Positions 822 through 33,606 of a stretch of 64,000 bases of DNA are shown here, one piece after another (positions within the stretch are counted from its first letter, which is position 1; each line of letters starts with the position of its first letter). Source of the DNA: an archaeon (GTDB lineage Archaea; Nanobdellota; Nanobdellia; Woesearchaeales; GW2011-AR9); contig JABHQR010000011.1 of NCBI GenBank assembly GCA_018696395.1, positions 56,482 through 120,481 on the forward strand. The letters are read 5' to 3'. Under the pieces are notes generated by a model that did not search any database, was not told where the DNA came from, and was given only the letters and a program-made list of their open reading frames with translations. Made by a program: the position numbers and the translations under genes.

Positions 822-842
822 ATATTAATAGAGGATAAAAAA

Positions 843-3700: not shown

Positions 3701-3735
3701 TGATTAAACTAAATTAAAAATAAAAATACACAAAA

Positions 3736-5364: not shown

Positions 5365-6255
5365 ATGGCAAAAGTAATACAACCAAAAACACCAGAAATA
5401 GAAGGGCCAGTTCAAGGAGAACAAGGAGATCTGTCTGATATAAGTGATGATGATAGAATTGTTGTAGCTAATAGTGAGTTTGAACTTCATTGTATTGGTA
5501 AGATGATTCAAGCCCATAGTAAAACTTTGAGAAAGGAATATGAGTTAAATCGTGGCGAGTCAATGTGTCTTGCAAAATATGTTGGTTTCAACGATAAGAT
5601 GGAATTATGTGCTTCAGATTTGGATAGGGATGATTTTTTAGATCTTGTTGAATTGGCTGATTCTAATTTAGGAAATATAATTAAAAATACTAATCTAAAA
5701 ACTTTGTTTCCAGATGTAATTAATGTAGAAATAGGCGAACCAATTCCACCAGATAATAGATTTTATCATAAAGCTGTAAATGCATACAAAGAAAAGTTTG
5801 GAAATGTATTAAAAAGATCTAAAGGTAGTTTAATCATTCCAGATATGTACTGTGTCCCTCTATTTTTTCCTGATGGTATGGGTCAATTATTTATAGAATA
5901 TCTTGGGTATATGGGGACTGATAAACCAAAAACTTACAATGGTGGAGACCCCATGTTTTTTGTTGCAAGTGATTTTCATGGAAATAAATACTTAGGATCA
6001 AATAATTTTTGGAGTGGCGTAAGTTTATTTTGCCCTGATAAGGTTTTAAACTTAATAAGTCAGTTAGATTCTAAATCAGAAGAGTTTGATTTAGTTGGTT
6101 TAATGGAGAAGTATGGTCAGTTCGAATCAACTTATCAGAAAGAGATTAAACAAAAAGATGGTACTGGGTTACAATTTGTTGACCTCACTAATTTAACTCA
6201 AAATTTACATGTAATGTATCAATCTAGGGTAGAGAGTCTTACAAAGAAAAGCTAA
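5365..6255 (+). CDS. Hypothetical protein, N-terminally tagged paralog family (member 3)
   Basis: 296 aa, N-terminus MAKVIQPKTPEIEGPVQGE. Paralog of 2795..3700 (IIPDMYCVPLFF vs IIPDVHALPLFL). Confidence 0.85.
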   Translation: MAKVIQPKTPEIEGPVQGEQGDLSDISDDDRIVVANSEFELHCIGKMIQAHSKTLRKEYELNRGESMCLAKYVGFNDKMELCASDLDRDDFLDLVELADSNLGNIIKNTNLKTLFPDVINVEIGEPIPPDNRFYHKAVNAYKEKFGNVLKRSKGSLIIPDMYCVPLFFPDGMGQLFIEYLGYMGTDKPKTYNGGDPMFFVASDFHGNKYLGSNNFWSGVSLFCPDKVLNLISQLDSKSEEFDLVGLMEKYGQFESTYQKEIKQKDGTGLQFVDLTNLTQNLHVMYQSRVESLTKKS

Positions 6256-6364
6256 ACATTTTCTTTTTAATTTTTATAACTCAAATTAAAATAAATTGGA
6301 AATAAAGTAAACAAAATAAAAACAATAAAAATACAATCTTGAGAAAATAAGCAAAACCAAAAAA

Positions 6365-8620: not shown

Positions 8621-8661
8621 TTTTTAATGATTAAATTTTTAATCAGTTCTAAAAAAGAAAA

Positions 8662-8777
8662 TGTGGGCGGCAGGGCTCGAACCTGCGTAGGCACTAAGCC
8701 AATAGGTATCTTCAAGTTGATAATGATTTATCAGTCTTGCCTAAGCCTATCCCGTTTGACCACTCCGGCACGCCCAC
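8662..8777 (-). tRNA. tRNA-Leu (anticodon TAG) with 32-nt intron at 37/38 (8708-8739)
   Basis: Acceptor stem GTGGGCG/CGCCCAC with discriminator A, D arm CCGGAGTGGTCAAACGG, anticodon stem ATAGG/CCTAT with loop CT-TAG-G|A, long variable arm, T arm GCAGG-TTCGAGC-CCTGC. Intron forms a relaxed bulge-helix-bulge. No encoded CCA. Confidence 0.95.
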
Positions 8778-8926
8778 ATTAATTATTCTGAATTTCATCA
8801 CTTATTTTTATATCTTTTGTTTTAAATTAAGTTAATTTGAACAATTTTATGTTTAAGATAAACAATACCCAAATCTTCACTCTAACCCCATAATATTTAT
8901 AAATTGGATTGTGTGTGAGAAATTCT

Positions 8927-9730
8927 ATGATAAACAAAAAAGTTAGTTTAGCATTAATCTTAACAGTTGTGTTAAGTTTGACTTTACTGTTAGTTGCTTG
9001 TAATGATACAGAAAGTATTGAAATCCCAACTTTTGATTACAGTGATTGTTCAGTATTAGAAGGTTCTGTAAAGGATGATTGTTACTTGACAAAATTACAA
9101 TGTAGTGAAATCAATTCAAGTTCAATTAAAGATTCATGTATCATTGAATTAGCATTTGAAGCTAAAAATATAGAAGTTTGCGAATTGGTACAGAGTGATT
9201 CTTCTGTAGATTATTGTTATTATAAATTTGCAATTGAAGATAATAATGCAGAGTTATGTGGAAATATTGATAGTGAATATTGGTTAAATAATTGTTATAA
9301 CACTTATGCATTAAACAATTCTGATGCGGATTATTGTAGTCTAGTAGTAAGGGGCGATCAGCAAACTGACTGTTATTATGATGTTGCAACTGATTCAAAT
9401 GAGGTAGGAGTTTGTACTTATTTGACTAACACAACAGATTTAGACAGATGTTTAATGATCATTTCAAAAGAGATTGCAGAAACTGATGGTTGTTATATGA
9501 TGAACTCTGGGCTTAATAAAGATGTATGTTTACTAAAAGTTGCTAAATTGGCTGATGACCAAGAAATTTGTGATGATATCTATATTGATGTAATTGAAGA
9601 AGATTGTAACAATTATTTTGATAGTATGGGTCAAGAAGAAGTTGTGGACGAAACAGAAACTGTAGAAGATGCTACTGAAGAAACTGACAGTGAACAAGAA
9701 CCAGAATTAACAGTTGAAGAAGAATTATAA
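8927..9730 (+). CDS. Secreted/lipoprotein-like Cys-rich repeat protein
   Basis: ATG 8927 lies 23 nt after TTTATAAA (8896-8903). Signal peptide ends LLLVAC. About 7 repeats of ~26 aa (C..I......D.CY...A......C) and an acidic tail. Confidence 0.8.
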   Translation: MINKKVSLALILTVVLSLTLLLVACNDTESIEIPTFDYSDCSVLEGSVKDDCYLTKLQCSEINSSSIKDSCIIELAFEAKNIEVCELVQSDSSVDYCYYKFAIEDNNAELCGNIDSEYWLNNCYNTYALNNSDADYCSLVVRGDQQTDCYYDVATDSNEVGVCTYLTNTTDLDRCLMIISKEIAETDGCYMMNSGLNKDVCLLKVAKLADDQEICDDIYIDVIEEDCNNYFDSMGQEEVVDETETVEDATEETDSEQEPELTVEEEL

Positions 9731-11984: not shown

Positions 11985-12827
11985 TTATAAATCTAACGTG
12001 TACCTACTTAAATTTCTATATTTTGGTTTTTGATTTAAAATTGTAATTAACTTTAATTCTTCAGTTCTAAATTCTACAAACACTGGCCTATCACGAGATT
12101 TAGCAACTATTAATTCATTTTCATAACTACGTTCTTGATTTTTAAAATTATATTTATTTACAACTTCAAAAGTTTCATCAAAACCACTGTGATAAAATAC
12201 TGTTTGATCAAAAGGATCTAAATTATGCCATTTGGGTGTAAAAGCTGCCTTTTCACCACACCTTCTATCAATATCTTCATTGAATTTGATTAAACCTCTT
12301 TCAAGAGGGGAACAATCATTATACATTGAAATTACTTTATCTTCATTTGAAACTTTTACTAAATTTGTAACTCTTCTATTATCCATGTCATTGATTTTAT
12401 TAGTTCCTTGAACTCTGAATAAAATGTATGAACTAGGACCACTAGTTCCATATCTAGGTAAATATGATCCAATTGTTTCAAGTAATTTTTGATTGGTTGA
12501 ACTTTTAAATTTGAAAACAGTTCCAATCTCAGAAAATTCATTCCATTGATTTTCCCAAATCTGATCTTGTTTTTTGACTTGACTCATTACATAATCAGAA
12601 AGAGCTTTGTGTTCTGTAATTCTTGTTCTTTGTTTTAAAATTTCAGCAGCTTGATCTCTAGTGGAATATAATTGTGCTGTGGATTTTTTAACAACATCTT
12701 TAGGGATTCTTCCATGTGATGCATCATGTCCAATTCTCCACGCTAATCCTTCAGTTTCATAAATTAAATTAGCTAAATTCATATTGTTAAGTTCTTCTAA
12801 GTTAGTTTTATCGGTTATGCTTGTCAT
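11985..12827 (-). CDS. Hypothetical protein
   Basis: 280-aa ORF starting 5 nt after the radical SAM gene. Confidence 0.7.
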   Translation of the reverse strand: MTSITDKTNLEELNNMNLANLIYETEGLAWRIGHDASHGRIPKDVVKKSTAQLYSTRDQAAEILKQRTRITEHKALSDYVMSQVKKQDQIWENQWNEFSEIGTVFKFKSSTNQKLLETIGSYLPRYGTSGPSSYILFRVQGTNKINDMDNRRVTNLVKVSNEDKVISMYNDCSPLERGLIKFNEDIDRRCGEKAAFTPKWHNLDPFDQTVFYHSGFDETFEVVNKYNFKNQERSYENELIVAKSRDRPVFVEFRTEELKLITILNQKPKYRNLSRYTLDL

Positions 12828-12832
12828 TTTTT

Positions 12833-14026
12833 TTATTTCACCTTTAATTTAACATCTGATCTAGTTACTTCTTTGTAACTTACACCATACTTTTCCTTCA
12901 AATAATTGTTTATTATTTCACAACTTTGTATGTAATTAGAGTTCCATGAAATTTGACGGTCAACAATGAACTTTACTTCATCAACACCTTTTCTTTGGGC
13001 TTCAAAAGTTAATCTTTTTGAATTTGGACCATACAATTTTAAAGGACCTATATGAATTCTTAATGAAATATTATCAATTATGTTATCTACATTTTCTAGG
13101 TAGTTTCTTAATTTTTTTGGGTCAGGATTATACATCTGTGGGAATATATCAAATCCAGAGTTAACAAATCTTTTAAGGGAATACATCTGATCTTCAATAC
13201 TAGTTACTGATTGTACATTCTGTTGTAAATTACAATCATCAACTCCTTTTAAGGCGGTAAGAACTTTGATTGGATATTCTGCTAATTTTTCTAATGTGAA
13301 CTTTTCAAATATCCTTTCACTTTCAAAATAATCTACTAAAGTTGCGGTTGAAAGGTTACTATCTAATTGCCCTACAAAATCTAAATTTCTCTTTTTAATT
13401 TCTCGCCATAAATTTAAAATCCAGTCTAGGACAATTGTGGGTTCTCCACCAGAAGTTCTTAATACCTTTAAATTAGTATCATGACCTAATCTTTGGTATT
13501 GGCTAACTATCTTTTTTCTAGCACTTAGCATACTATCAATAGTTTCATTAATCCCTAAGTTAACTTTACCTTGTCCTGGTAATCCATTATTATTTTTGTC
13601 ATCAACAAAACAATACCAACATCCACCTGATGAATTTCCTGTATGAAAATTACATCCTGCTATCTGTAATGTGAAAGGTGCATTATAAAAATTAACTTTT
13701 TTCATATTAAACTGACGTTCATGTTTGTACCATAAAGGGAAATCAAATTCTTGTTTTCTTAAAAATTTTTCAATTTCATTTTCTGTTTTTTTTGTAATGT
13801 CAAAAAATGGTGTTTCATACTTTTCAGAAGCTAATGGGTCAATTTCTTTAACATTTACCTTTGTTCTAAAAGGATAGTCTGTAGTACCAACTATTGGCAT
13901 TAAATCAATTACCTTTGATGTGTCTTCACCTTGTAATGTTCCTCTAAAATCTGCAACAAGAATTTTATCATTTTGAATTAAACTTTCTCTTAACATTAAT
14001 GCTCTGTCAATAGGATCAGTTTTCAT
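12833..14026 (-). CDS. Radical SAM superfamily protein with atypical CX10CX2C motif
   Basis: LQIAGCNFHTGNSSGGCWYCF, LRTSGGEPT (GGE motif), LDSN and ALKG strands. Confidence 0.8.
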   Translation of the reverse strand: MKTDPIDRALMLRESLIQNDKILVADFRGTLQGEDTSKVIDLMPIVGTTDYPFRTKVNVKEIDPLASEKYETPFFDITKKTENEIEKFLRKQEFDFPLWYKHERQFNMKKVNFYNAPFTLQIAGCNFHTGNSSGGCWYCFVDDKNNNGLPGQGKVNLGINETIDSMLSARKKIVSQYQRLGHDTNLKVLRTSGGEPTIVLDWILNLWREIKKRNLDFVGQLDSNLSTATLVDYFESERIFEKFTLEKLAEYPIKVLTALKGVDDCNLQQNVQSVTSIEDQMYSLKRFVNSGFDIFPQMYNPDPKKLRNYLENVDNIIDNISLRIHIGPLKLYGPNSKRLTFEAQRKGVDEVKFIVDRQISWNSNYIQSCEIINNYLKEKYGVSYKEVTRSDVKLKVK

Positions 14027-14613: not shown

Positions 14614-15745
14614 TTTTATTTCTTGTAACTTTTTTTGTTTTATGATAAGCACCAATTGCTTCACTTAAAGAATTGTAACCTTCTTTCTTAAGGAGTTTAA
14701 CTAACCCTCTGTTAATTTCCTCAATAACTCCTGGCCCTTCATAAATCATTCCTGTAATCAGTTGTACTAAACTAGCACCACTTTTGATCATTTCATAAGC
14801 ATCTTTAGCTGAGAAAATTCCTCCAACTCCCATGATTATATATCTTCCTTCAGTTTTGGTATAAACTTTGTTTATCATGTCAATTGATTTTCTTCTAACT
14901 AAATTTCCACTTAATCCACCTGGTCCAACTTTACTAAACTCTGCTTTAAATTCTTTTTCTGGTATGTTAAGGTCTTCTCTTTTTTTTGATAAATTAGATA
15001 TCACAAACCCATCTACACGATGACTGTCACATACTTTAATTATATCATTAAGTTCTTTATCTGTCAAGTCAGGTGACATCTTGATAAATATCGGTTTATC
15101 GGTATGGACAGTTTCTAATTTTGTTAATAGTTCATTGAAACTTTTTTTGTCAGTAAATGGAAGCCCACCGAATGCGTTTGGGCAACTGATATTTATTGTG
15201 AAATAATCTCCAAATGGTTCTAACAATCTAAAACTTTTATAATAATCTTCAATTCCAACATTTAAATCAGCAGTTTCTTTACAATTAGTTTTGGCAATAC
15301 TAATCCCTAAAGTTAATTTAAACTTTTTTCCATATAACTTTTTAGCGATAGCTTGACACCCCGGATTTTTTAAACCATAATAAACTACTATTGATTTATA
15401 TCTCGGTAAACGCCACATCCTCGGTTTTTTGTTTCCTTTACATGGTTTAGCTGTAACTGATCCAATTTCTTGATGACCAAATCCTACATGTGGTAAAATA
15501 TTCATTAACCTTGCATCTTTATCAAAACCAGCAGCTAATCCTACCGGATTATTGAATCGTATTCCTTTAATATCTTGAACTAACATTGGATGTTGATAAT
15601 TGAACCAAAAATCTAACATATCTTTCAATAAAGGGGTTTTACCTAATAAATCTCCAACTTCAGTAATCAAATCATGAACAAATTCAGGATCAAATTTGAA
15701 AAAAATTGGTCTTAAAATTTTTGTATAAATTTTTGTATGAACCAT
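14606..15745 (-). CDS. pyrD: Dihydroorotate dehydrogenase, class 2-type scaffold
   Basis: N-terminal LRPIFFKFDPEFVH helix, GLAAGFDK, GSVT, NISCPN, KMSPD, GGLSG, GVGGI, LVQLITGMIYEGP. Start moved to ATG 15745 to avoid overlap with nth. Confidence 0.93.
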   Translation of the reverse strand: MVHTKIYTKILRPIFFKFDPEFVHDLITEVGDLLGKTPLLKDMLDFWFNYQHPMLVQDIKGIRFNNPVGLAAGFDKDARLMNILPHVGFGHQEIGSVTAKPCKGNKKPRMWRLPRYKSIVVYYGLKNPGCQAIAKKLYGKKFKLTLGISIAKTNCKETADLNVGIEDYYKSFRLLEPFGDYFTINISCPNAFGGLPFTDKKSFNELLTKLETVHTDKPIFIKMSPDLTDKELNDIIKVCDSHRVDGFVISNLSKKREDLNIPEKEFKAEFSKVGPGGLSGNLVRRKSIDMINKVYTKTEGRYIIMGVGGIFSAKDAYEMIKSGASLVQLITGMIYEGPGVIEEINRGLVKLLKKEGYNSLSEAIGAYHKTKKVTRNKIN

Positions 15746-15785
15746 TATAAACATCTTTTTTAGGAATATATTTAAAAATATTTTG

Positions 15786-16460
15786 ATGTTAGAAGATGTA
15801 ATGGTGAAAAATAAGGTGAGTGCTGAAACTAGCAATAAAATTATTTTAGTGTTAAAAATTCTTGAAAAAACTCATCAACCAACTATGTTAGAACAGTTAA
15901 GTAATTATACCTCATTTCAATTATTAGTGGCAACTTTGTTGAGTGCAAGATCAAAAGATTCTACTGTGATTCCAATTGTGAGAAAATTGTTTAAAGAATA
16001 TCCGTCTCCAGAAGATTTTATTAATATTGATGTGACTTTTTTAGAAAAAAAGTTATATCAAATTGGTTTTTATCGGGTTAAAGCAAGAAATGTCATTGAG
16101 CTTAGTAAAATTCTTATCGAAAAATTTAATGGTCAAGTTCCAGACAATATTCATAATTTAATCTCTTTACCTGGGGTTGGAAGAAAAACTGCTAATTGTA
16201 TCCTTTGTTATGTTTTTAACAAACCAGCAATTGCAGTAGATATTCATGTACATAGAATAACAAATTCTGGTAGGTTAAATTGGGTAAATACAAAAATCCC
16301 TGAATCAACAGAACAAGAATTAATGAAAATTGTTCCAAAACAAAATTGGAATGATATCAATCGTTTAATTGTAGATCATGGTCAAAGAATATGCTCTCCT
16401 GTGAAACCAAAATGTGAAATGTGTACTATCAAAGAATTTTGTAAATTTAATAAGAATTAA
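15786..16460 (+). CDS. nth: Endonuclease III (HhH-GPD DNA glycosylase, 4Fe-4S)
   Basis: LLSARSKD, HhH LPGVGRKTA, VDIHVHR and C-x6-C-x2-C-x5-C. Exact start uncertain (15786 or 15801). Confidence 0.95.
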   Translation: MLEDVMVKNKVSAETSNKIILVLKILEKTHQPTMLEQLSNYTSFQLLVATLLSARSKDSTVIPIVRKLFKEYPSPEDFINIDVTFLEKKLYQIGFYRVKARNVIELSKILIEKFNGQVPDNIHNLISLPGVGRKTANCILCYVFNKPAIAVDIHVHRITNSGRLNWVNTKIPESTEQELMKIVPKQNWNDINRLIVDHGQRICSPVKPKCEMCTIKEFCKFNKN

Positions 16461-16600
16461 TCATTTAAAGGATTTCTGTTTTATTTTTTCAAATATAAAT
16501 TATTCATTTACCCCCTTTAATTGACTGTTCCAATATCTGTGTCAGATACGTAGTATGCCTTCTTTAATTATATGATGTATATGTTAACCACTTAAAAATT

Positions 16601-16617
16601 ACAAAAAACTTTATAAA
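16601..16617 (+). promoter_or_regulatory. Putative BRE/TATA promoter of the 16758-23414 operon
   Basis: ACAAAAAAC-TTTATAAA, purine-rich BRE-like element plus TATA box, about 140 nt upstream of ATG 16758, which has a GAGGA SD. Confidence 0.45.
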
Positions 16618-16757
16618 TGGAGCTTGTTATTAGGTATAGGTAGGTATTATTATACATATTAATGTTCGAGAATTGGTGTGATATAAGAGTTTTAGATGTT
16701 CTAAAGAGTGATAGGTAAATTATGTTAAAATTAATGTAAACATGTGAGGAAATTAAA

Positions 16758-17636
16758 ATGCAAAATTTAAAAGATTTTTTTGATGGGTTAAGCTATGAAG
16801 TGGCTAGATTGTCAATGGGTGATAGTTATGGTATACTTAATGGGGTAATTCAAGATACTGAAATACCTGAAAAATATTCAACTGTATTAGATTTAGCTAA
16901 GGGTTTAGTTGGTGCATTAGGTGGTGTTGGTGATGAAGATAGTAATGATCTTATGACTCAAATCCAAACTTATTGTACTGATAAAGAGGATGCATTAGGA
17001 AATAGAAGATCCATAAAAAATAGGGAAGTTAATATCATTATTAATCAGTATAATGGTACATTAGATGTGATAATGCCTGTTAAAGAAGATGATTTAGAAA
17101 GTAATGGTTTGCCAAATAAACTTTATGAGTCTGTTGAAAAAGTTTGTACAAAATTAGAAGCTGAATATCAATGTGTATGTGACCATAAAATTTGGGAGGG
17201 ATATGTTCTATTTTCAGTGCCAAATGTTGTTGATAGAAGTGATTTAGCTAAGAGAATTATGGATAATGCACCTAAACAATTAGGTGGAACAAATGGGGAC
17301 GGTCGAAGAATTGCTTATTTAAGAATTGCAGACAATTTTGCGTTTAAATATAAAGGAAATTCTGTAAATGAACTACAAGATTTAGGGTCAGTTGTTGAAA
17401 TAGAACCTGTTGGTAGGTCAAGGAATGATCTAAATGAGAAAAACATTAGTCAATCTTATAGTTCTTTGCCTAAAAAAGAAAAAATTAGGTTAAGAAAAGA
17501 GATTAAAGTTTTGTTTGAAAATGGTATTGACAAAAATGTTATCAGACAAACATATTCACAAGTTCCAATACAAGCAATTGCTGGTGTAGAAGCTGCAATG
17601 ACTCTCGCAAATAAGAAAAAAGATCAATCAAGTTAA
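16758..17636 (+). CDS. Hypothetical protein with shared operon domain and C-terminal HTH-like module
   Basis: LDVIMPVK..LPNKLY..EGYVLF..NAPKQL resembles segments in the next two ORFs. C-terminal LPKKEK..LFENG..IRQTY..QAIAG resembles the C-terminus of 21411..23414. Confidence 0.75.
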   Translation: MQNLKDFFDGLSYEVARLSMGDSYGILNGVIQDTEIPEKYSTVLDLAKGLVGALGGVGDEDSNDLMTQIQTYCTDKEDALGNRRSIKNREVNIIINQYNGTLDVIMPVKEDDLESNGLPNKLYESVEKVCTKLEAEYQCVCDHKIWEGYVLFSVPNVVDRSDLAKRIMDNAPKQLGGTNGDGRRIAYLRIADNFAFKYKGNSVNELQDLGSVVEIEPVGRSRNDLNEKNISQSYSSLPKKEKIRLRKEIKVLFENGIDKNVIRQTYSQVPIQAIAGVEAAMTLANKKKDQSS

Positions 17637-17708
17637 TATTTTTTATTTTTTATTATCTTAACTAATCTATTAAAAAAATTAATTATATGATTTTTCATGA
17701 GGATAAAA

Positions 17709-18575
17709 ATGTCCAGATTAGAACAACTATTAAGAAAAAATTTAGAAGCAAGAAGAGATTTGCAGTTAGATTTATCTCAAATGAATTCTCAATTAGAATC
17801 TAGTCAAGGTACATATTCTCAATTAATTGAAGAAAAAACAATATTGCAAAAGGATTCTGATCCTAAACCTTTGAAAGAAATTATGCTTGAAAATCTAGAA
17901 ATAATGACTTCAAAGTTTGAAGAAAGGGCAAGGATTAGTTATGAAATGACTCAGCAGGATAAAGGGATGGATCTATTTGGTTACCATATTATTCTTAACG
18001 ATTTGATGTTAGAAATAGCTGAGGAGAAATGTATTGAAAAAAATCAAGATATCCCCATCCCATTTCAAAAGATGATTGAATTATCTAAAGAAAGAAACAG
18101 AATCAGGAATGAATTATATGACAGTATGCTTGAAACTTTATATCTTGGTCCGATAATTTATCCTGTAAGTAGAACCGAAATTAATATCTATTTGCCAATT
18201 AAGTCAACAACCGACCCATTTAATTTTCCTTTATTGAATGTATTGATGGAAAGAGTTGGAAGAAAAGTTATTGATAATAATGGTAATTTGGATTATGATC
18301 ATTCCGATGGGTTTATTTCTTTAGTCTATATAGGTGGGAGAAATAAAATTAACAATATGGTGAATTCTCTTTACCCAAGTATTTCAAATCTCAACCCATC
18401 AGAATATTTTACATCTGCAAATGTAGTTTATTCAGTACTGGATTTAAGAAAAAATGTTCAAATTAAAACTGCTCAAGATTTTTTTGATAAAGTTGGTGGT
18501 TCAAGACATTTAAGAAGAATTAGTAGGACTTATGATCAAATTGAGCGTGCATTTAGTGATAGGAATAATAATTAA
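17709..18575 (+). CDS. Coiled-coil protein with shared operon domain
   Basis: GAGGA SD before ATG 17709. N-terminal heptads, then INIYLPIK..DGFISL..NPSEYFTSANVVYSVLDL. Confidence 0.75.
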   Translation: MSRLEQLLRKNLEARRDLQLDLSQMNSQLESSQGTYSQLIEEKTILQKDSDPKPLKEIMLENLEIMTSKFEERARISYEMTQQDKGMDLFGYHIILNDLMLEIAEEKCIEKNQDIPIPFQKMIELSKERNRIRNELYDSMLETLYLGPIIYPVSRTEINIYLPIKSTTDPFNFPLLNVLMERVGRKVIDNNGNLDYDHSDGFISLVYIGGRNKINNMVNSLYPSISNLNPSEYFTSANVVYSVLDLRKNVQIKTAQDFFDKVGGSRHLRRISRTYDQIERAFSDRNNN

Positions 18576-18601
18576 AATTAATACCAAGGAGAAAATTCAA
18601 A

Positions 18602-20161
18602 ATGAAAGATTTGGCTGAAAGGTTAAGAAATAACCAACAAAAGAGGGTAGGTGCTAAAGTAGAATTGTCTGAGTTAGATCAAAGAATAAAAAAATTAGAA
18701 CAAGAGATTAATCAATATCAAATTAGAAAAGAAGATCTTACTCAAAATCTTAATCAGTTAGGTAGTTCATTGATCGATGACCTAGTTGATGAAGTTAGAT
18801 CTTATACTGTTCAATTACAAGAAAGGGTAAGTGATTATGATTCAGTTGTAATCAAAAAGGATCTTCTTTGGGTTAATGTTGGACTTAAAAGAGATAAACT
18901 TGAAATTTCAACACAAAATTTTGAAAAAGATGATTTTGGAAAATTAATTTCAGTTTATGAACAAAATAAACATATTAAAATTATTGCAGATCAATTACAA
19001 CCTCAATATGATTTGGCATTAGAATTAAAAAATAGTATTGAAACATTAACAACAGATATTTCTAGCTTTGAACAAGAATTAGAACAAATCCAAAATTTAC
19101 CTGAACTAGAAGTGGGTAGTGTTGTATATCAAAAAGAAGATGGTTCTGTTGATGTATATCTTCCTGTAATGTTTATTATTGAAGAAGATCAAATAAAAAA
19201 TAATTTATTAGTTGATTCTTTAAATCATCATTTTTTGAATGCATTAACTGATATTGAATTTGGTGATGTTGATGAATTAGAAATTGAAGGTGTTACTAGG
19301 TATAATATTGATAATGTAAATAAATCTCAATTGATTAAAGAATTAAGAGAAAGAAATCCATCGCATTTTATTGAACATAATGTGAAATATCATATTATTG
19401 ATTTGAATGAATTAGAACAAGAGATATTAGGAATTAAGGATGTAAAAGATAATTTTGACCCTGCAAAGTTTGATGCAGAATTAGGAACTAACTTTTATTC
19501 GGTTACTAGGCTCAAACCAGGTGATTTTATTCCTATAACTGATACTGAAAAATTTACTGGAATGAAATATACCTCTCTCTATAGGTTTTTGGATCATGCA
19601 GGTGGTAATATGATCTCAAAGACTAATGGTGGTGTAGGGAGGAAAAGTGCAACCTTAATTGAAGTAAATTCTTTGTATGTTTCGTTTACTCAACATTATG
19701 ATACTAAATTAAACTTTATCTTTGCTGAGCAAGTTAAGTCTTTGTTTGATGAAAAATCAAGGGGGTTTAAGTATGAAATTAATGAGTCTAGGGACATTGT
19801 TAAAGAAATGGAAGAAAGAGGTTATTTAGCAGCAATAAAAACTTCAAAGGGTGATGTTGAAATTAATGCTTATTCAGAAAGATTAGTTCAGATTGGTATG
19901 GGTAATTATTTTATAGAAGTTTATTTTGAAGACCATAAAGCTGATTCTTTTAATTTTGACCAATTGAAAGATTTATTAGGTTATACAAACGATAAATCTT
20001 TAGTGTCTAAACTAGAAAAATTAGATGGATATCAAATTAATAAAAATAATACTGTGTCTGGTGAAATTATGTGTGATTTTATTAGGAAATTTAAATATTC
20101 TAGTAATGGGAAATGGATGAATCGTTCTTCATCCGATAGATATCAAAAAGTTAAATCATAA
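18602..20161 (+). CDS. Coiled-coil protein with shared operon domain and possible C-terminal HTH motifs
   Basis: AGGAG SD, ~165-aa coiled coil, VDVYLPV..EGVTRY..NPSHFIEHNVKYHIIDL, and IPITDTEKFTGMKYTSLYRFL (HTH-like). Confidence 0.75.
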   Translation: MKDLAERLRNNQQKRVGAKVELSELDQRIKKLEQEINQYQIRKEDLTQNLNQLGSSLIDDLVDEVRSYTVQLQERVSDYDSVVIKKDLLWVNVGLKRDKLEISTQNFEKDDFGKLISVYEQNKHIKIIADQLQPQYDLALELKNSIETLTTDISSFEQELEQIQNLPELEVGSVVYQKEDGSVDVYLPVMFIIEEDQIKNNLLVDSLNHHFLNALTDIEFGDVDELEIEGVTRYNIDNVNKSQLIKELRERNPSHFIEHNVKYHIIDLNELEQEILGIKDVKDNFDPAKFDAELGTNFYSVTRLKPGDFIPITDTEKFTGMKYTSLYRFLDHAGGNMISKTNGGVGRKSATLIEVNSLYVSFTQHYDTKLNFIFAEQVKSLFDEKSRGFKYEINESRDIVKEMEERGYLAAIKTSKGDVEINAYSERLVQIGMGNYFIEVYFEDHKADSFNFDQLKDLLGYTNDKSLVSKLEKLDGYQINKNNTVSGEIMCDFIRKFKYSSNGKWMNRSSSDRYQKVKS

Positions 20162-20179
20162 ATAAAATAAGGATATAAA

Positions 20180-21421
20180 ATGACAACTGGAAATCAAGAC
20201 AAAAACTTAACTTATGTTGAAGCAGCAAGATTACTAGAAGTTAAACCATTAGATATATTTAAAGAAGTTAGGCCAGGAAATTTAGAAACTGTAATGTTAT
20301 CTGATGGGATGTCTTATGTTTCAGAATCTGTAATTACCAATATGTTATTGGAAAGAGTTAAAGAAAATGTTTCTTATATCGTTGAAGAACCAGGAGTACA
20401 AAAATTAACTGAAGAAGAACATGTAGGCGCAGAAATTATTGGAGCTGGATCTATTTTTGAAGAAATTGATAGTTCTAGTTCTGTAGATAATGACCCTGTT
20501 ATACCTATATCTGAAAAGACCACCACCTTGTTATCTGATTCTTCAACTGTTATCAATAAACAAGGTTATAAAAAAATCGGTTCAACTAATGTTAATCCTG
20601 TTGTTGATTTAGAAAAAACACTTTTAGGAAGTAAAGTATTGGAATATAAAAAAGAACATGGTGAAATGAATGTTGGAAATTTAATTCCTTGTTTAGGACA
20701 ATATTTTGGTATTGTGGGTTTAAGTAAGTTGAAACAAATTTGTGATAAAAATAATGATTATTCTTTAATTAAATCATTTTTTGATGAAATTAAAAATGAT
20801 ACCTTTTGGTCAGGATATATTGTTGATCTTGATAAAGTATACAACTTGATTGTTAACAATTATCTTGAGATTGGTATTCCTGAAAAATATGATATTGAAC
20901 TAAACCCTCAAATATTTTCTCCTGAAAATATTAAAAAATTAGAATCTCAATTACAACAAGATTTAGTATCTATTACCAATAATGGAAATGGTGTAAGTGA
21001 TGGAAATAAGTTGCAATCTGAACTTGAGATTGGGAAAATATCTCAAGAAATTGGTTGCCCAATTGAAATAGTAAAGAATTTAATTAGTGAACAATATGAC
21101 CCAATATATCTATATGCTGGAATAATTAAAGCCTTGGATTTAGATAAAAGTAGTAGTAATCCGAGAATTGGCAATAATACATTAAGTGTGACTAATGTAA
21201 ATAAAAATTTTAGAAGAGCATTAAATACTGGTGGCGTTCATTGTATAAAAACCCCATTTGAATCGATATTTAAGTCTTTACCAAATGAGTTATTATTCAC
21301 TAAACGTAATAGGGCTAAGGAGACTTGTTATTCATTAAATCCTGCTTGGGGAGTAATCACTGAAGGAACTGTTCTTTACGATTTTTTAAATCATTATTTA
21401 GAAGGAAGAAATGAAAACTGA
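20180..21421 (+). CDS. Protein with N-terminal excisionase/MerR-like HTH
   Basis: LTYVEAARLLEVKPLDIFKEVRPGNLE..GMSYVSESVI, homologous to the N-terminus of the next ORF. Confidence 0.7.
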   Translation: MTTGNQDKNLTYVEAARLLEVKPLDIFKEVRPGNLETVMLSDGMSYVSESVITNMLLERVKENVSYIVEEPGVQKLTEEEHVGAEIIGAGSIFEEIDSSSSVDNDPVIPISEKTTTLLSDSSTVINKQGYKKIGSTNVNPVVDLEKTLLGSKVLEYKKEHGEMNVGNLIPCLGQYFGIVGLSKLKQICDKNNDYSLIKSFFDEIKNDTFWSGYIVDLDKVYNLIVNNYLEIGIPEKYDIELNPQIFSPENIKKLESQLQQDLVSITNNGNGVSDGNKLQSELEIGKISQEIGCPIEIVKNLISEQYDPIYLYAGIIKALDLDKSSSNPRIGNNTLSVTNVNKNFRRALNTGGVHCIKTPFESIFKSLPNELLFTKRNRAKETCYSLNPAWGVITEGTVLYDFLNHYLEGRNEN

Positions 21422-23414
21422 AATCTTTAATTATATCAGTGCAGCAAGAAGGTTAGGGTTAAGACCACTAGAAGTTATTTCTAAAGTGAAATCTGGTGAT
21501 TTAGAAGTTATTGTTGGTGATGATGGGATTAATTATATCGTTGGAAGTTCTATCCATAATTATCTTAATCCAATTGAAGAATCTCCTTTAATAGAAGTTA
21601 CTCCTGTTGTTGGCATGCAAAAATTGATTGAAGATGTTGTTGAAAATAGTAAACAAAAATCAAAAAATCTTTTTAACAGGCGAAACTTTTCATCAGAAAT
21701 ATCTGAACCTAAAGTTGATTCTAGAATCTCTGTTCCTCGAAAAATTTATGATGAAAGTGAAATGGAAGAAAAAGTATTAGGTACACTACATAAATTATTG
21801 TTAAGAAAAGGTAAAAGTGTCCATTCAGTTTACAGTAATTTTAATAGTTGGTTTAGAAAAAACTTTCCAGATTATGATCCGGTTGAGTATACTACTAAAT
21901 TGCAAAGTGAAAGTAAATTAATATCTAAGCCTAGGAAAGGGGGTGTTGCTATATTTCCCCCAGTTGATGAATTATCTTTTATTGAAGTTACTGATCATGA
22001 GGAATTAGAATTATTAATTAATAGATATTTGGAGGGGGATGATATCACCAGGTATGATTATCCAAATAAAAAATTAAATCGTGAAAGGGAAATCTCTTTT
22101 TTAGAAAATAATATATTAATTACTCCTAAAACTTCGTTAGTTTATTTGTCTGGCCCACAAGCTTTAGAACAACCTTATTTTGACGGATTAAATATTCGTA
22201 GAGAAAATGTAACTAGTGTAGAAAGAAAAATTGCCTATGCTGAATTGATTAAAAGAGATGTTCCTGGCATAAATTTATTTAAAGGAGAATTGTCGCACTT
22301 TGTATCTATTGATAACAATCAGAAAGATGCTTATTTGATTGATTATGATGGTTATGTTAAAGAAGATACTGTAAGGATTCTTGAAAAAATAGTTAGAAGA
22401 CAATTATTAAAAGATAAATCTGTATTAATGACAAACTATTTTGGAAATAGGGAACAAGAAGAACAAAAATTTTTTTATCTTGAACCTTTAGTTTGTTCTG
22501 ACTTAGACTCTTTTAAATTAGTTGGTGGGGATTCAGTAACTGACCATTTTGAAGATGACATTATTGATCAAAAGAAAGAAAATGGTTATCATGATTTAAG
22601 AGATAATGGGATTACCGCATTATCCATGAAAATTTTAATGGGTAAAGATACATTTCAATTAAATGAAAGAGTTCTTCGTATTATGCCTGATGAAATGAAA
22701 GAAAAATTTGGTAATTATCATGATTCTCATCATGATTGTAATAAAGATTATGCATGGTATATTGGAACTAATGATCTTATGAGAAAAGGGTTAATGGAAT
22801 ATTTTATAGGTGAAGAGCAAGAAACATTAGCTAAACTGGTTTTTTTAGTTGGTGTTGCAGAATCTCAACCTTATTTTATTACTAATCTTGAAAGAAATTG
22901 TTATTATACAAAAGATGGCCATAATCTATTTTATACTGATATGTTTGCTCTTGACAGGAAGGCTGAAACATTGAATATGTTAATTCAAGAAGAAAAAATA
23001 AGGCCTTTATATTTTGGAGAAAAAAATGTTGAGGAGTATAATGATTTTTTTAATACTTTAAAATTGAGGGAGCAAAATAGATTAACAAAAATTATTGATA
23101 ATGCTTATGATGAAATTTCTAATTTATATCGTAATTTCTTTTTAGTTAAGGATTTATCTGAACGAAGATTGTTAGGCGATGGGAAGAAAAAGAGAAGTAA
23201 AGTTGTTGAAGTTGAAGGACTAGGAACAATTAATCCTAGAGTTAAAAAGAAAAGAAAATTATCTAAAGATGATAAGGTTGAATTATACCACATGTTTAGT
23301 GAGGGATCTGGTAATTATGAAGCAGTAAAAGAAAGGTTTAATATCTCTTCTCAGCAATATGCTGCATTTAAACAGAGTTGGTATAGGAAACATAGTTCTG
23401 GAATAGAAAATTAA
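21411..23414 (+). CDS. Multidomain protein: Xis-like HTH, winged-helix-like domain, putative class I SAM methyltransferase fold, C-terminal HTH
   Basis: FNYISAARRLGLRPLEV; HSVYSNFNSWFRKNF..KLISKPRKGGVAIF; LVYLSGP..VTSVER..LFKGEL..DAYLIDYDG; LSKDDKVELYHMF..ERFNISSQQYAAFK. Overlaps the upstream gene by 11 nt. Confidence 0.6.
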   Translation: MKTEIFNYISAARRLGLRPLEVISKVKSGDLEVIVGDDGINYIVGSSIHNYLNPIEESPLIEVTPVVGMQKLIEDVVENSKQKSKNLFNRRNFSSEISEPKVDSRISVPRKIYDESEMEEKVLGTLHKLLLRKGKSVHSVYSNFNSWFRKNFPDYDPVEYTTKLQSESKLISKPRKGGVAIFPPVDELSFIEVTDHEELELLINRYLEGDDITRYDYPNKKLNREREISFLENNILITPKTSLVYLSGPQALEQPYFDGLNIRRENVTSVERKIAYAELIKRDVPGINLFKGELSHFVSIDNNQKDAYLIDYDGYVKEDTVRILEKIVRRQLLKDKSVLMTNYFGNREQEEQKFFYLEPLVCSDLDSFKLVGGDSVTDHFEDDIIDQKKENGYHDLRDNGITALSMKILMGKDTFQLNERVLRIMPDEMKEKFGNYHDSHHDCNKDYAWYIGTNDLMRKGLMEYFIGEEQETLAKLVFLVGVAESQPYFITNLERNCYYTKDGHNLFYTDMFALDRKAETLNMLIQEEKIRPLYFGEKNVEEYNDFFNTLKLREQNRLTKIIDNAYDEISNLYRNFFLVKDLSERRLLGDGKKKRSKVVEVEGLGTINPRVKKKRKLSKDDKVELYHMFSEGSGNYEAVKERFNISSQQYAAFKQSWYRKHSSGIEN

Positions 23415-23420
23415 TTTAAA

Positions 23421-23660
23421 TTAATCTGTTCTCAAAATCTTAACTAACTTAACTACTGCAACTATTAACCAAATCGCATTTAATATGATGAATGGCCATG
23501 ACATAATCATGAAAGAATATAATGTTAATAATCCTGCTCCAATGATGTTGATAAGATTATAATTTTTATTTTCTTGATTAAAATTTTCATAAAATTCATT
23601 TAATAAAAATGCTAGAAGAATTAATATCATACCAATTAATCCAATTATTGTGTTTATCAT
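23421..23660 (-). CDS. Small membrane protein (CBU_0592-like)
   Basis: 79 aa, three hydrophobic helices, IGLIGMILILLAF..YNLINIIGAGLL..WPFIILNAIW. Confidence 0.75.
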   Translation of the reverse strand: MINTIIGLIGMILILLAFLLNEFYENFNQENKNYNLINIIGAGLLTLYSFMIMSWPFIILNAIWLIVAVVKLVKILRTD

Positions 23661-31077: not shown

Positions 31078-33606
31078 TCAAAACCCATCCAAACTTAACT
31101 GCTCTTTCTCCTTCTTAGCTTTGATTTTCTTGACCATTTCGTCTTCTGCTTCTAAAACTGATTGAATTTCTTTAGCTCTATCTACAACAGAACTTGGCAT
31201 CCCCGCAAGTTTAGCTACATGGATTCCATGACTTTGGTCAGTTCCACCTTCTATTAATTTTCTTAAATAAATGATCTCATGACCTTTTTCTTTTACTGCA
31301 ACATTGAAATTTTTGATTTTGTCAAATTTATCTGAAATTTTGTTAAGAACATGATAATGTGTCGCGAACATAGTTTTTGCTTTAATGTTTTTGTAAATAT
31401 GTTCTACTGTACTCCACGCAATAGCAACACCATCAAATGTTGATGTGCCTCGGCCAATTTCGTCTAGGATTATTAAACTTTTATCAGTAGCATTGTTAAG
31501 AATGTTAGCTGTTTCCAACATCTCTACCATAAATGTTGATTGGCCAAAACTTAAATCATCTTGGGCACCAACCCGAGTAAATATTTGATCAACAATATGT
31601 GATGAAGTATTATCTGCTGGGACAAAACTTCCAACTTGTGCCATTAAAATAATTAGCGCAGTTTGTCGCATGATAGTACTTTTACCTGATGTGTTTGGTC
31701 CGGTAATTATCATGATCTCATTATTTTCTAGTTTAACATTATTAGAAATAAATTTTTGTTCAATAGTTTCAATTACTGGATGTCTTCCATTAGTAATTTC
31801 AATCATATTTAATTCGTTAAAATGTGGTTTACAATAATTGTTGTCCATTGAAACTTTACTGAAAGAAGATAGTACATCTAGTAAAGCTAATTTTTGTGAT
31901 GCTTCTTGAACAATTTCTGTAGACCTTTTTAGTTCTTCACAAATTGCTTGAAATAATTTAAATTCTAATTCATAAATTTTTTCTTCTGCTCCTAAGATTT
32001 TTTCTTCTTCTAATTTTAATTCTTCTGTGATGTAACGTTCGGCATTAGCAGTAGTTTGTTTTCTAATGTAACTTTTTGGAACTAAATGTACATTTTTTTT
32101 CGTAACTTCAATAAAATATCCAAACACTCGGTTGAAAGAAACTTTTAATGCATTAATCCCAGTTTTGGCTTTTTCTCGATCTTCAATTTCTCTTAAGAAC
32201 TTTTTAGAATTTGTTTTAATTTCAACCAGTTCTTTTAATTCTTGATTAAAACTACTTTTAATAATTCCGCCTTCTCTAATTGTTGTAGGTGCATCATCTT
32301 TGATTGATCTTTCTAAAAGTAAAAATTGTTCTTGCATTGATCCAATCAAACTAACCTCTTTTAGTAAATTAGAATTAAAACTAGAAATTATTTTTTTAAT
32401 TAAAGGAATCTTTTGTAATGTGTTTTTTAATGAAAGTAAATCTTTTGGATTGGCATTACCATAATTAACCCTGCCAATTAACCTTTCTAAATCATAAACT
32501 TCTTTTAATAAATCTCTTAATTCTTCTCTTTCAATAACTTTTTCATTTAATTCTTCTACTGAGTTAAGTCTTTGAACTATTTTTTGTTTGTTTAGTAAGG
32601 GTTCTTTGATAATCTTTTTCAACATTCGTGAACCAATAGAACTTACTGTGTGATCAAGAACTGATAATAAGGTTCCTTCTTTACCTTGATTACGAATATT
32701 TTGACTAATCTCTAAATTGATTAATGTTCTTCTATCAAGTAACATTATTTCAGTATCATTAATAGAATTAATTGATTTGAAATGTGCTAAAGAGTTTTTT
32801 TGTGTGTCTTGTAAATATTTCATTAATGCTCCAGCTACACTAATTTCATTTTTTTTATTTATGTTAATTTCATCCAAACCAAATCCCGTTAAACTTTTAA
32901 CATCAAAATGTTCTAGTAAAATTGCTTTGGCATTATCAAACTGAAAATAATAATCTGGGAATTTGTTTACAAAAGAGCCTAACTTTCTAATTGTGGAAAT
33001 TAATTCAGTATTAACCATCATTGATTCAGGTACAATGCATTCAGAAATATTTCTTCTTTGAATCTCTGCTAAAATTGATTCTGTGGATCTTGCTTGTCCA
33101 CATAACAATTCTCCTGTTGATAAATCAGCGATTGAGTAAACATAAGATTCTCCATAAGATTTAATTGTTATAATATAATTATTTTCGTTAGCATTAAGAA
33201 GTGTTGATTCAATTAAAGTTCCTGGGGTAACTATTCTTACTAATCCTCTTTTAACAAGACCTTTAGCTAATTTTGGGTTTTCTAATTGTTCAACAATAGC
33301 CACTTTGTGACCTTTCTTAACTAACTTTCCAAGATAAGTTTCTAGAGCATGATATGGTAATCCAGATAATGGGGCGGCTTTTTCTCCTTTACCTCTGGAA
33401 GTTAATGTGATCTCTAAATCTCTGGCTGCAGCAATGGCATCTTCATAAAACATTTCATAGAAATCCCCCATTCGAAGCATGATCAGACAATCAGGATTTT
33501 CTTTTTTAGCATCCCTGTATTGTTTCATACCTGGAGTTAACAAATGTTCAGGTATATCTAATACACTTACTATCTTTTTTGTTTGCCCTGCTGCTGGTTC
33601 AGTCAT
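31078..33606 (-). CDS. mutS: DNA mismatch repair protein MutS (MutS1)
   Basis: TPGMKQY, RMGDFYEMF mismatch-binding motif, GPNTSGKS, STFMVEM, DEIGRGTST, ATHYH, SHGIHVAKLAG. Confidence 0.97.
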   Translation of the reverse strand: MTEPAAGQTKKIVSVLDIPEHLLTPGMKQYRDAKKENPDCLIMLRMGDFYEMFYEDAIAAARDLEITLTSRGKGEKAAPLSGLPYHALETYLGKLVKKGHKVAIVEQLENPKLAKGLVKRGLVRIVTPGTLIESTLLNANENNYIITIKSYGESYVYSIADLSTGELLCGQARSTESILAEIQRRNISECIVPESMMVNTELISTIRKLGSFVNKFPDYYFQFDNAKAILLEHFDVKSLTGFGLDEININKKNEISVAGALMKYLQDTQKNSLAHFKSINSINDTEIMLLDRRTLINLEISQNIRNQGKEGTLLSVLDHTVSSIGSRMLKKIIKEPLLNKQKIVQRLNSVEELNEKVIEREELRDLLKEVYDLERLIGRVNYGNANPKDLLSLKNTLQKIPLIKKIISSFNSNLLKEVSLIGSMQEQFLLLERSIKDDAPTTIREGGIIKSSFNQELKELVEIKTNSKKFLREIEDREKAKTGINALKVSFNRVFGYFIEVTKKNVHLVPKSYIRKQTTANAERYITEELKLEEEKILGAEEKIYELEFKLFQAICEELKRSTEIVQEASQKLALLDVLSSFSKVSMDNNYCKPHFNELNMIEITNGRHPVIETIEQKFISNNVKLENNEIMIITGPNTSGKSTIMRQTALIILMAQVGSFVPADNTSSHIVDQIFTRVGAQDDLSFGQSTFMVEMLETANILNNATDKSLIILDEIGRGTSTFDGVAIAWSTVEHIYKNIKAKTMFATHYHVLNKISDKFDKIKNFNVAVKEKGHEIIYLRKLIEGGTDQSHGIHVAKLAGMPSSVVDRAKEIQSVLEAEDEMVKKIKAKKEKEQLSLDGF

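Follow-up and report, generated by a model that had tools for sequence, protein, structure and literature searches.

A rarely seen, fast-changing archaeal operon encoding DNA-binding-type proteins around a methyltransferase-like protein

Results

Gene content of the locus

The window (the whole stretch of DNA analysed, 64,000 nt) originates from an archaeon of the DPANN type, as judged from its ribosomal protein S8e and from the titles of related records. Between positions 16758 and 23414 the ORF list contains five reading frames, all on the + strand: g1 (16758-17636, 292 aa), g2 (17697-18575, 292 aa), g3 (18602-20161, 519 aa), g4 (20180-21421, 413 aa) and g5 (21411-23414, 667 aa). The coordinates agree exactly with those of the first-pass annotation, which had described five co-oriented genes, none of them recognisable as housekeeping, and had seen no nuclease, ATPase or integrase motif. 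Both statements held, as none of the five proteins reached the curated cut-off of any Pfam, NCBIfam, PHROGs or PADLOC model. The genes are separated by 60 (g1/g2), 26 (g2/g3) and 18 nt (g3/g4), and g4 and g5 overlap by 11 nt. All five starts had been described as led by a Shine-Dalgarno (SD) sequence; SD-like purine-rich words were found upstream of four of them, the exception being the start of g2.

Upstream of g1 there is an AT-rich intergenic leader of 297 nt (16461-16757, + strand, delimited by reading the sequence), in which the word TTTATAAAT near position 16609 could be a putative archaeal TATA box. A scan for sigma-70 promoters gave no more sites than were found in shuffled sequences. 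The G+C content is flat (0.27-0.29) over the block and its flanks. Contigs of run X6, which comes from a separate study, span positions 14913-17743 and also 22769-23496, differing from the window at no more than one position. Since these contigs extend across both ends of the block, the ends are not assembly artefacts.

Domain architecture of the five proteins

All features described here lie on the + strand. The g1 protein begins with a short helix, followed by an alpha/beta domain, designated 'LPV' (residues ~84-195, nt 17007-17342), which aligns with g3, and by a C-terminal HTH-like module (residues ~244-288, nt 17487-17621), which aligns with the C-terminus of the g5 family. In g2 a helical N-terminus precedes the 'LPV' domain (residues 124-250, nt 18066-18446, as placed by hhalign against the g3 family). 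This protein looks like a shortened paralogue of the N-terminal half of g3, judging from its sequence, and no orthologue of it was found: phmmer across all fetched loci returned g2 alone. The N-terminus of g3 (residues 2-165) is coiled-coil-like, with weak matches to coiled-coil proteins including SMC (E 3.4e-4); it is followed by the 'LPV' domain (~153-272, nt 19058-19417) and by a C-terminal region of repeated HTH-like units (~300-519), a unit of which gave three matches within the orthologue from locus L047. For g1 and g3 orthologues were aligned. In g4 an excisionase-like HTH lies near the N-terminus (residues 8-52, nt 20201-20335), and the C-terminal part is conserved. The largest protein, g5, has an HTH at its N-terminus (residues 4-56) and another at its C-terminus (617-662, nt 23259-23396). 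Between them lie a second, small domain (118-182) and the methyltransferase-like core (~213-589, nt 22047-23177).

Modules shared between the proteins

The first-pass annotation had proposed that g4 and g5 share an N-terminal HTH, that g1 and g5 share a C-terminal HTH-like module, and that g1, g2 and g3 have a domain in common. The first similarity was evident already by BLASTP (E 7e-8, with 33% of residues identical across 70 aa), and an HMM built from the N-termini of the g5 family matched g4 (3e-4) and one g4 orthologue (1e-9). The C-terminal module shared by g1 and g5 was invisible to BLASTP but emerged at the profile level, where hhalign comparison of the g1 family with the g5 family gave an E-value of 9e-5, improving to 7e-7 after sequences were added. 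An HMM made only from g5-family C-termini matched two g1 orthologues (7.6e-11 and 8.6e-6); g1 itself was not matched at a domain E-value below 0.05.

The middle domain of g1-g3 gave weak BLASTP scores (E 0.003 and 0.017). In hhalign comparisons with the g3 family, E-values of 4e-4 were obtained both for the g1 family (103 columns) and for g2 (118 columns), whereas the controls, comprising 40 column-shuffled runs, three reversed runs and comparisons with unrelated alignments, gave 0.17-0.98. The direct comparison of g2 with the g1 family yielded only 0.065. At the level of profiles the shared modules are thus real, and they link all five proteins.

The terminal modules look like excisionase-type and resolvase-type HTHs. 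Those at the N-termini of g4 and g5 agree in size and pattern with the excisionase/MerR-like (Xis-like) family HTH_17 (PF12728), to which two of the 80 g5-family members showed weak matches (E at least 0.032). Neither g4 nor g5 matched this or any other Pfam model, and no similarity was above the cut-off. They differ from HTH_17 proteins also in that a recombinase partner is absent and the module is appended to far bigger proteins. A weak match of g5 to MamR (E 0.0011) was also seen.

The core of g5 belongs to a large methyltransferase-like family

The g5 core is a member of a large family (1171 clusters at 50% identity) that carries no annotation and has no curated model. A profile of 80 members found its best solved relative in 2ift_A (HI0767; E 1.6e-4), a class I SAM-dependent methyltransferase of the RsmD / Cons_hypoth95 (PF03602) group. 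The alignment spans from motif II to past motif IV. A glutamate conserved in the family (E271 of g5, at the end of strand 2, kept in 78 of 80 members) falls on the ribose-binding acid of motif II, the L-E of 2ift, and the family sequence L-D-Y-D-G falls on L-D-P-P-F, so that the two aspartates coincide. Motif IV reads L-D-Y-x-G in the family (D311 in 80/80, Y312 in 69/80, G314 in 70/80); (D/N)-P-P-(Y/F) is absent, the aspartate alone being in common. Neither the GxGxG loop of motif I nor a variant of it was recognisable after strand 1, where the consensus, V-x-C-F-P-G-x-E-A-L-E, keeps just one glycine (G248, 75/80).

Several other polar residues are nearly invariant and all are present in g5: K220 (79/79), E253 (76/80), R347 (79/80), E348 (77/80), R397 (76/80), Y498 (79/79) and D510 (78/79). 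Such conservation is compatible with a putative active or ligand site. Single members gave weak matches to Cons_hypoth95 (5/80), Methyltransf_35 (3/80) and the PP_RS20740 family (3/80). The PADLOC model mad2 was matched by 3/80 members at E <= 0.01 and by 2/79 at E <= 0.001, the best value being 6.6e-6, over the region from motif I to strand 4. By itself, g5 matched no methyltransferase model in searches that included Pfam and NCBIfam-type models, and when the profile of its family was compared with that of a small, canonical methyltransferase from this lineage, the similarity was not significant (hhalign E 0.17). The models nearest to the Atlas model of g5, itself of low confidence (pLDDT 0.60), among those with names were class I methyltransferases (TM 0.61-0.70).

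Judged by its sequence, the core of g5 resembles RsmD-type methyltransferases remotely. Of the SAM-methyltransferase-like core proposed earlier, the general likeness and the motif II acid were retained, and the glycine loop and the DPPF motif were not found. The family stays below the Pfam cut-off of RsmD and differs from it further by a big helical insertion, by ~200 extra conserved residues, by the HTH modules at both ends of g5 and by its sporadic occurrence. Because the SAM-binding glycine loop is unrecognisable, it is by inference only that g5 can be called catalytic.

A C-terminal HNH nuclease domain was present in 5 of 79 family members. Among the neighbours of stand-alone members, about 12 of 66 are translation genes, namely those for aminoacyl-tRNA synthetases, S7, S28e, eIF2-gamma, TruD, and diphthamide and deoxyhypusine synthases.

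Recurrence, synteny and divergence

A neighbourhood search recovered the set of g3-like, g5-like and g1-like genes from some eight further genomes or contigs of archaea. A g1-like gene immediately follows the g5-like gene in six distinct loci (L008, L009, L040, L044, L048 and L066; L048 and L049 are identical and were counted as one). Upstream of the g5-like gene, six loci (L008, L009, L043, L047, L048 and L066) have a g3-like gene or domain, and three (L043, L047 and L008) contain a g4-like gene or part of one. The modules have also been joined in natural fusions. A 498-aa protein of L008 combines the N-terminal half of g3 with the C-terminal part of g4, and in L066 a 590-aa protein consists of a g3-like coil and domain followed by a methyltransferase-like core ending in L-D-F-M-G, with a g1-like gene on its 3' side. 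Co-occurrence elsewhere and assembly by domain shuffling, both suggested by the first reading of the locus, were borne out by these findings.

The operon is confined to one DPANN lineage and is rare: of 401 genomes from the class, 17 had a match to the g5 profile, and of 401 from the order, 4 had a match to the g1 family. G009, which represents another genus, has the operon next to the same three genes (orf235, DUF1003 and H+-PPase); from the congener G001 it has been deleted. Between the genome studied (G000) and G009, g5, g1 and g3 share 35%, 26% and 24% identity, respectively, while the adjoining H+-PPase shares 79%. The operon is therefore chromosomal, inherited, syntenic across genera and quickly evolving. 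Its neighbours are housekeeping genes (ribosomal protein operon, primase, MutS, PPase); the ribosomal protein operon adjoins the system in L043 and L040. An AbrB-domain gene in divergent orientation adjoins it in seven loci, and a gene for a DUF676-like alpha/beta-hydrolase lies 3' of it in L042, L043, L047 and L048.

Discussion

The operon of five genes is real, seldom encountered and changing fast, and in it DNA-binding-type proteins surround the unusual methyltransferase-like g5. Most likely, the operon marks or organises DNA. Our preferred interpretation, to which we assign a probability of roughly 0.35, is that the proteins form a multi-HTH complex bound to DNA that directs a divergent enzyme of methyltransferase fold. 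The conserved anchor would be g5, a class I (RsmD-like) methyltransferase-fold protein with three DNA-binding-type modules, which most likely modifies, or at minimum binds, particular DNA sites. Its partners, g3 with the helper g4 and g1 with its local duplicate g2, would have no enzymatic role. Each combines a helical or coiled-coil stretch with the common alpha/beta domain and with HTH modules like those found in g5. They may oligomerise through the coil and the common domain, and could thereby bring g5 to the chromosome, aim it there or hold it in check. A DNA substrate, catalysis and contacts between the proteins are what we infer from these features.

Besides RsmD, close known systems include MAD2 and, more generally, orphan and restriction-modification DNA methyltransferases. 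In the accessible part of its description, mad2 is a predicted N6 DNA methyltransferase of MADS (10.1101/2023.03.30.534895), a system which the available text of the sources presents as having eight genes, including those for ATPases, nucleases and a kinase (PMC13662399; 10.1101/2023.03.30.534895). Both MADS and the present locus are multi-gene operons, and the mad2 model weakly matches a few g5-family members; however, g5 itself is unmatched, and ATPase, nuclease and kinase genes are absent here. BREX, DISARM and similar systems likewise consist of several genes, unite a methyltransferase-type protein with proteins of unclear role and are patchily distributed, but the present operon has no PglZ, helicase, ATPase, nuclease or PADLOC-recognised component and is not part of a defence island.

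A tentative and rather unlikely alternative is a new DPANN defence or conflict system, based on methylation or DNA sensing, in which g5 marks self DNA and the partners, perhaps helped by an effector from the adjoining gene, sense foreign DNA or block it. The patchy spread, the deletion from the congener, the very fast divergence, the varying gene order with the g2 duplicate and the fusions, the HNH domains and the hydrolase gene 3' of the operon would all suit it, as would the scarcity of restriction-modification and CRISPR systems, reported as under-represented in DPANN in the accessible portion of PMC12988326. However, none of the genes reached a PADLOC cut-off: the best score with PADLOC-DB 2.0 was that of PDC-M19A against g1 (E 0.0054, 14 bits, below cut-off), and g2, g4 and g5 gave no match at all. 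The operon encodes neither a nuclease nor an ATPase nor any other effector that could be recognised, no integrase, tRNA or further defence gene lies nearby, and searches of phage records and viral contigs found no relatives. With the locus chromosomal, syntenic between genera, set among housekeeping genes and away from mobile genes, the defence role suggested at first found no direct support. A bolder and unlikely extension is that the g5 family represents an undescribed DNA-modifying clade with a D-Y-x-G catalytic motif which, in one DPANN lineage, has recruited coiled-coil and HTH partners for nuclease-free marking of self/foreign or host DNA. If true, this would be an epigenetic immunity or host-interaction device of a type unknown from any organism.

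Alternatively, the complex could be structural, acting in chromatin, segregation or transcriptional regulation, with the methyltransferase fold as a non-catalytic scaffold or ligand sensor. HTH-type modules in every protein, helical or coiled-coil stretches in three, the lacking glycine-rich SAM loop, the syntenic chromosomal context and the divergent AbrB-domain gene are in line with this proposal. We consider it doubtful, as the acids of motifs II and IV and other polar residues are almost invariant in 80 diverse sequences, which is more enzyme-like, and a core role in chromatin is hard to square with the absence of the operon from most relatives.

RsmD, the 16S rRNA methyltransferase, is a universal bacterial rRNA enzyme. 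Since it acts on rRNA, and since translation genes neighbour family members, g5 could also be an rRNA or tRNA methyltransferase with RNA-binding or regulatory accessories; its nearest solved and curated relatives are of this type, and the ribosomal protein operon stands beside two of the loci. This seems improbable. The family occurs in only ~4% of the searched class genomes, unlike conserved RNA-modification enzymes, the attached HTH modules are of types usual for DNA binding, and some members carry an HNH fusion. In genomes this small, moreover, a sizeable fraction of the genes with an annotation serve translation, so that ~12 of 66 may be due to chance.

A relic of viral or plasmid integration, for which the excisionase-like HTH modules accompanied by a methylase, the absence of the block from the congener and two mostly viral clusters in the Atlas feature search (score 0.80-0.83, below the lead level of 0.9) might speak, is very improbable, because the window gave no Pfam match to integrase/recombinase, viral or plasmid hallmark genes and no tRNA or other Rfam match, capsid, replication and att-like features were not found, two queries against 50,697 phage records and a search of viral contigs gave no match, the G+C content is steady, and the same chromosomal neighbours occur in another genus.

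DPANN archaea have tiny genomes in which much of the retained content has no known function. An operon that is conserved, and that so small a genome retains and rapidly diversifies, offers a testable entry into this uncharacterised gene fraction, the more so as g5 belongs to a large methyltransferase-like family without a curated model. Should the g5 core not be an enzyme, the locus would still define four new protein families and a recurrent pattern of domain shuffling.

As regards the substrate, the HNH fusions and the excisionase- and resolvase-type HTHs were counted as a pointer to DNA. The activity of RsmD on rRNA and the many translation genes next to stand-alone members were counted against the interpretation as a DNA-bound complex.

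Organization of the g1-g5 operon

The five co-oriented genes proposed in the first-pass annotation were recovered, with identical boundaries, as plus-strand open reading frames: g1 (window 16758-17636, 292 amino acids), g2 (17697-18575, 292 amino acids), g3 (18602-20161, 519 amino acids), g4 (20180-21421, 413 amino acids) and g5 (21411-23414, 667 amino acids). Gaps of 60, 26 and 18 nt separate g1/g2, g2/g3 and g3/g4, respectively, whereas the last 11 nt of g4 are also the first 11 nt of g5. All five genes had been described as SD-led; a purine-rich SD-like word was found before four of them, the exception being g2. The leader 5' of g1 is AT-rich and 297 nt long. Since a convergent gene for a small membrane protein ends 6 nt past the end of g5, the block looks, as far as sequence can indicate, like a single transcription unit. 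Its G+C content is flat throughout, and contigs of an independent marine sequencing run (X6) span both ends with at most one difference; read joints with sides of only 20-25 letters were disregarded. None of the sequencing runs recorded as RNA contained this stretch. Scans of the g1-g5 block for repeats, promoters and terminators gave nothing above chance.

Ribosomal protein S8e, which a control search found in archaea only, is encoded in the genome (1.38 Mb in 24 contigs, about 29% G+C). Its presence ruled out a CPR bacterium, a host considered on account of the bacterial-type genes for MutS, DprA and an M23 peptidase in the window. The original assignment to a DPANN host was right. The MutS gene of this archaeal genome (window 31078-33606) encodes a bacterial-type protein with all five domains, and DprA is encoded at 38425-39372.

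Protein families and shared modules

None of the five proteins had a match above the cut-off in Pfam, PADLOC, PHROGs or NCBIfam. Below the cut-off, the first 165 residues of g3 matched coiled-coil families weakly (e.g. SMC, E 3.4e-4), and residues 4-53 of g5 matched MamR, an excisionase-like HTH (E 0.0011). A word-indexed homology search returned almost nothing besides the window's own proteins (one protein for g5, five for the g1 family), and PDB profile searches with the g1 family, the g3 family and the close g5 subfamily gave chance-level matches only. The Atlas model of g1 was too poor for use (pLDDT 0.41). No description of the operon or its families was found in the literature searched, which consisted mostly of listings and abstracts. 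The operon is real, conserved and apparently undescribed, and it comprises four new protein families and one protein from a large methyltransferase-like family that lacks annotation.

The N-terminal HTH previously noticed in both g4 and g5 was detected by BLASTP (E 7e-8) and with an HMM of g5-family N-termini, which matched g4 at 3e-4 and the g4 orthologue of locus L043 at 1e-9. The g1 and g5 families have in common a module of some 45 residues at the C-terminus (hhalign E 9e-5, and 7e-7 with 8 versus 18 sequences). An HMM built solely from g5-family C-termini matched the g1 orthologues of loci L048 (7.6e-11) and L044 (8.6e-6), and g1 itself gave no match to it at domain E < 0.05; the proposed module of g1 and g5 is supported at the level of family profiles.

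The domain ascribed to g1, g2 and g3 is a middle alpha/beta domain, whose hallmark is a hairpin with L-P-V/I at its end. The g1 family aligned with the g3 family over 103 columns and g2 with the g3 family over 118 columns (hhalign E 4e-4 in each case), both alignments falling on g3 residues about 133-272. Control comparisons gave E values of 0.17-0.98 (40 column-shuffled runs), 0.22-0.75 (three reversed runs) and 0.16-0.93 (unrelated alignments). The alignment of g2 with the g1 family was marginal (E 0.065). By its sequence, g2 resembles a truncated duplicate of the N-terminal half of g3. A strong hhalign match (1e-20) between the g3-family (A8) and g4-family (A10) alignments was rejected as an artefact, as a fused protein of locus L008 sits in both.

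Linkage of the genes in other genomes

Loci with close g5 relatives came from two genomes of the same family (G009, locus L008; G003, locus L009), other archaeal MAG records (L040, L042, L043, L044), metagenome contigs (L047 and L048, the latter with an identical copy, L049) and genome G515 of a different family within the order (locus L066). A g1-like gene directly follows the g5-like gene in L008, L009, L040, L044, L048 and L066. A g3-like gene is located ahead of it in L009, L043, L047 and L048 and occurs as a fusion in L008 and L066, and a g4-like gene lies between the g3 and g5 counterparts in L043 and L047. Since g1-, g3- and g4-like genes recur beside g5 relatives, the predicted linkage extends beyond the window, and the objection that the genes do not occur together elsewhere fails. 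The gene order is g3-g4-g5-g1 elsewhere and g1-g2-g3-g4-g5 in the window. No g2 orthologue was found in any locus searched, and none of the 11 loci of distant, stand-alone g5-like genes (L010, L011, L030-L038) contained a g1 or g3 relative.

Two natural fusions join modules that are separate in the window. In L008 the N-terminal half of g3 is fused to the C-terminal part of g4; in L066 a g3-like coil and domain are fused to a methyltransferase-like core, and a g1-like gene follows.

The methyltransferase-like core of g5

A profile built from g5 and four relatives was run against 1.84 billion cluster representatives and matched 1171 proteins at E <= 1e-3, 682 at E <= 1e-10 and 174 at E <= 1e-30. 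Among genomes, it had matches in 6 of 41 that are closely related and in 17 of 401 from the class. Most of the matching proteins start at the core (about residues 213-589 of g5) and are about 450 amino acids long. On the core, the 60 members sampled yielded no Pfam domain at E <= 1e-3. An 80-sequence family profile matched the RsmD-like methylase 2ift_A (E 1.6e-4), a conserved E falling on motif II and L-D-Y-D-G on L-D-P-P-F. Nearest to the Atlas model of g5 (pLDDT 0.60) were unnamed proteins of about 500 amino acids, followed by class I methyltransferases. All residues that are near-invariant in the family are present in g5 (K220, R224, G248, E253, E271, D311, R347, E348, R397, Y498 and D510). 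Single family members weakly matched Cons_hypoth95 (5 of 80), Methyltransf_35 (3 of 80), Spermine_synth (2 of 80), the PP_RS20740 family (3 of 80) and RsmD (2 of 80). Weak matches to PADLOC mad2, described as the predicted DNA N6-methyltransferase of MADS (10.1101/2023.03.30.534895), were obtained for 3 of 80 members at E <= 0.01 and for 2 of 79 at E <= 0.001 (best 6.6e-6).

An HNH nuclease domain is located at the C-terminal end of 5 of 79 family members, which along with the HTH modules points to DNA. Proteins P0024, P0030, P0031, P0049 and P0052 represent a g5-like subfamily of about 590-600 amino acids with a C-terminal ZorE/IscB-like HNH nuclease domain.

The reading that we tentatively prefer, with a probability of roughly one in three, is a DNA-bound assembly with g5 as its working part and the other gene products as partners. 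The g5 protein would have a divergent methyltransferase fold and carry three modules of DNA-binding type; g3 and g4, as well as g1 and g2, would be partners having HTH modules in common with g5, and would probably oligomerise via the coil and the middle domain. Genes, linkage, modules, fusions, synteny and divergence were seen directly; we infer the substrate, catalysis and physical contacts between the proteins.

Genomic setting and evolution

In G009, which belongs to another genus, the operon has the orf235, DUF1003 and H+-PPase genes beside it, just as it does in the window. Endonuclease III is encoded there by a single-copy gene 7.4 kb upstream of the operon; it was therefore treated as a neighbour only and rejected as a member of the system. 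In the congener G001, about 470 nt separate pyrD from the small membrane-protein gene, behind which come orf235 and DUF1003. Endonuclease III and the five genes are therefore missing there: the segment opposite window 15836-23420 (G001:C34, locus L054) contains neither. No g5 relative was found in G001 (93% complete), and the window's endonuclease III protein matched nothing anywhere in that genome. Identities between the window's genome (G000) and G009 were 79% for PPase and 63% for DUF1003, versus 35% for g5, 26% for g1, 25% for g4 and 24% for g3. From the synteny in G009, the absence from G001 and the low identities it follows that the operon is inherited chromosomally, often lost and fast-evolving, with rearranged gene order.

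Two further genes recur at the operon. One encodes a protein of about 310 amino acids with an AbrB/MazE-type N-terminal domain and lies nearby, divergent to the operon, in seven loci (L008:16709-17686, L009:7135-8067, L040:7585-8481, L044:6404-7357, L047:1157-2089, L048:2662-3618 and L066:6694-7599). The window's genome has six paralogues, none of them within the window. This gene could be a regulator of the operon, or else a syntenic neighbour only. The other, an alpha/beta-hydrolase gene (G-H-S-K-G-G; weak match to DUF676 serine esterases, E 5e-6), comes immediately after the operon in four loci (L043:10484-11395, L042:1090-1998, L047:8520-9428 and L048:9325-10317), and is a possible effector in these versions. 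The window has no counterpart of it; the hydrolase gene was rejected as the counterpart of g2 (hhalign E 0.35).

The patchy distribution, the fast evolution, the HNH-fused g5 relatives and the hydrolase gene as operon neighbour favour a new defence or conflict system. However, the window's operon is without any effector, its chromosomal position is conserved, and its context is one of housekeeping genes, which elsewhere include a ribosomal protein operon in both L043 and L040, primase in L040 and MutS in L048, so that we consider this explanation doubtful. In L048 the distance from the operon to a downstream MutS gene is about 3.3 kb.

Other readings of the core

The glycine-rich loop is absent from the family core, judged by conservation of the aligned members, and motif IV of the family is without the prolines of methyltransferase motif IV. 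The family profile did not align significantly with that of a canonical small methyltransferase from this lineage (E 0.17). These features count against a plain methyltransferase. A non-catalytic chromatin or regulatory complex is unlikely. An RNA methyltransferase with accessory proteins appears quite improbable. A mobile-element remnant is very improbable, the window having no integrase, tRNA or other Rfam match and phage records and viral contigs giving no match. Tyrosine-integrase and LAGLIDADG endonuclease genes accompany the stand-alone g5-like gene of L034 (L034:5943-8092), the sole mobile-element context among the 11 stand-alone loci.

Three other regions of the window were recorded. 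Seven co-oriented plus-strand open reading frames (263, 624, 301, 513, 296, 751 and 273 amino acids) occupy positions 30-9730 and had no Pfam match at E <= 1e-5; they are probably the first candidate system of the first-pass annotation. Upstream of pyrD, the minus strand of 11985-14026 encodes a 397-amino-acid protein whose radical-SAM match is weak and under the cut-off (E 2.4e-4), followed by a 280-amino-acid protein without known family. Large co-oriented open reading frames of 815, 1201 and 815 amino acids, likewise without a Pfam match at E <= 1e-5, are located at 44634-54237, with two short ones between the 1201-amino-acid frame and the second 815-amino-acid frame.
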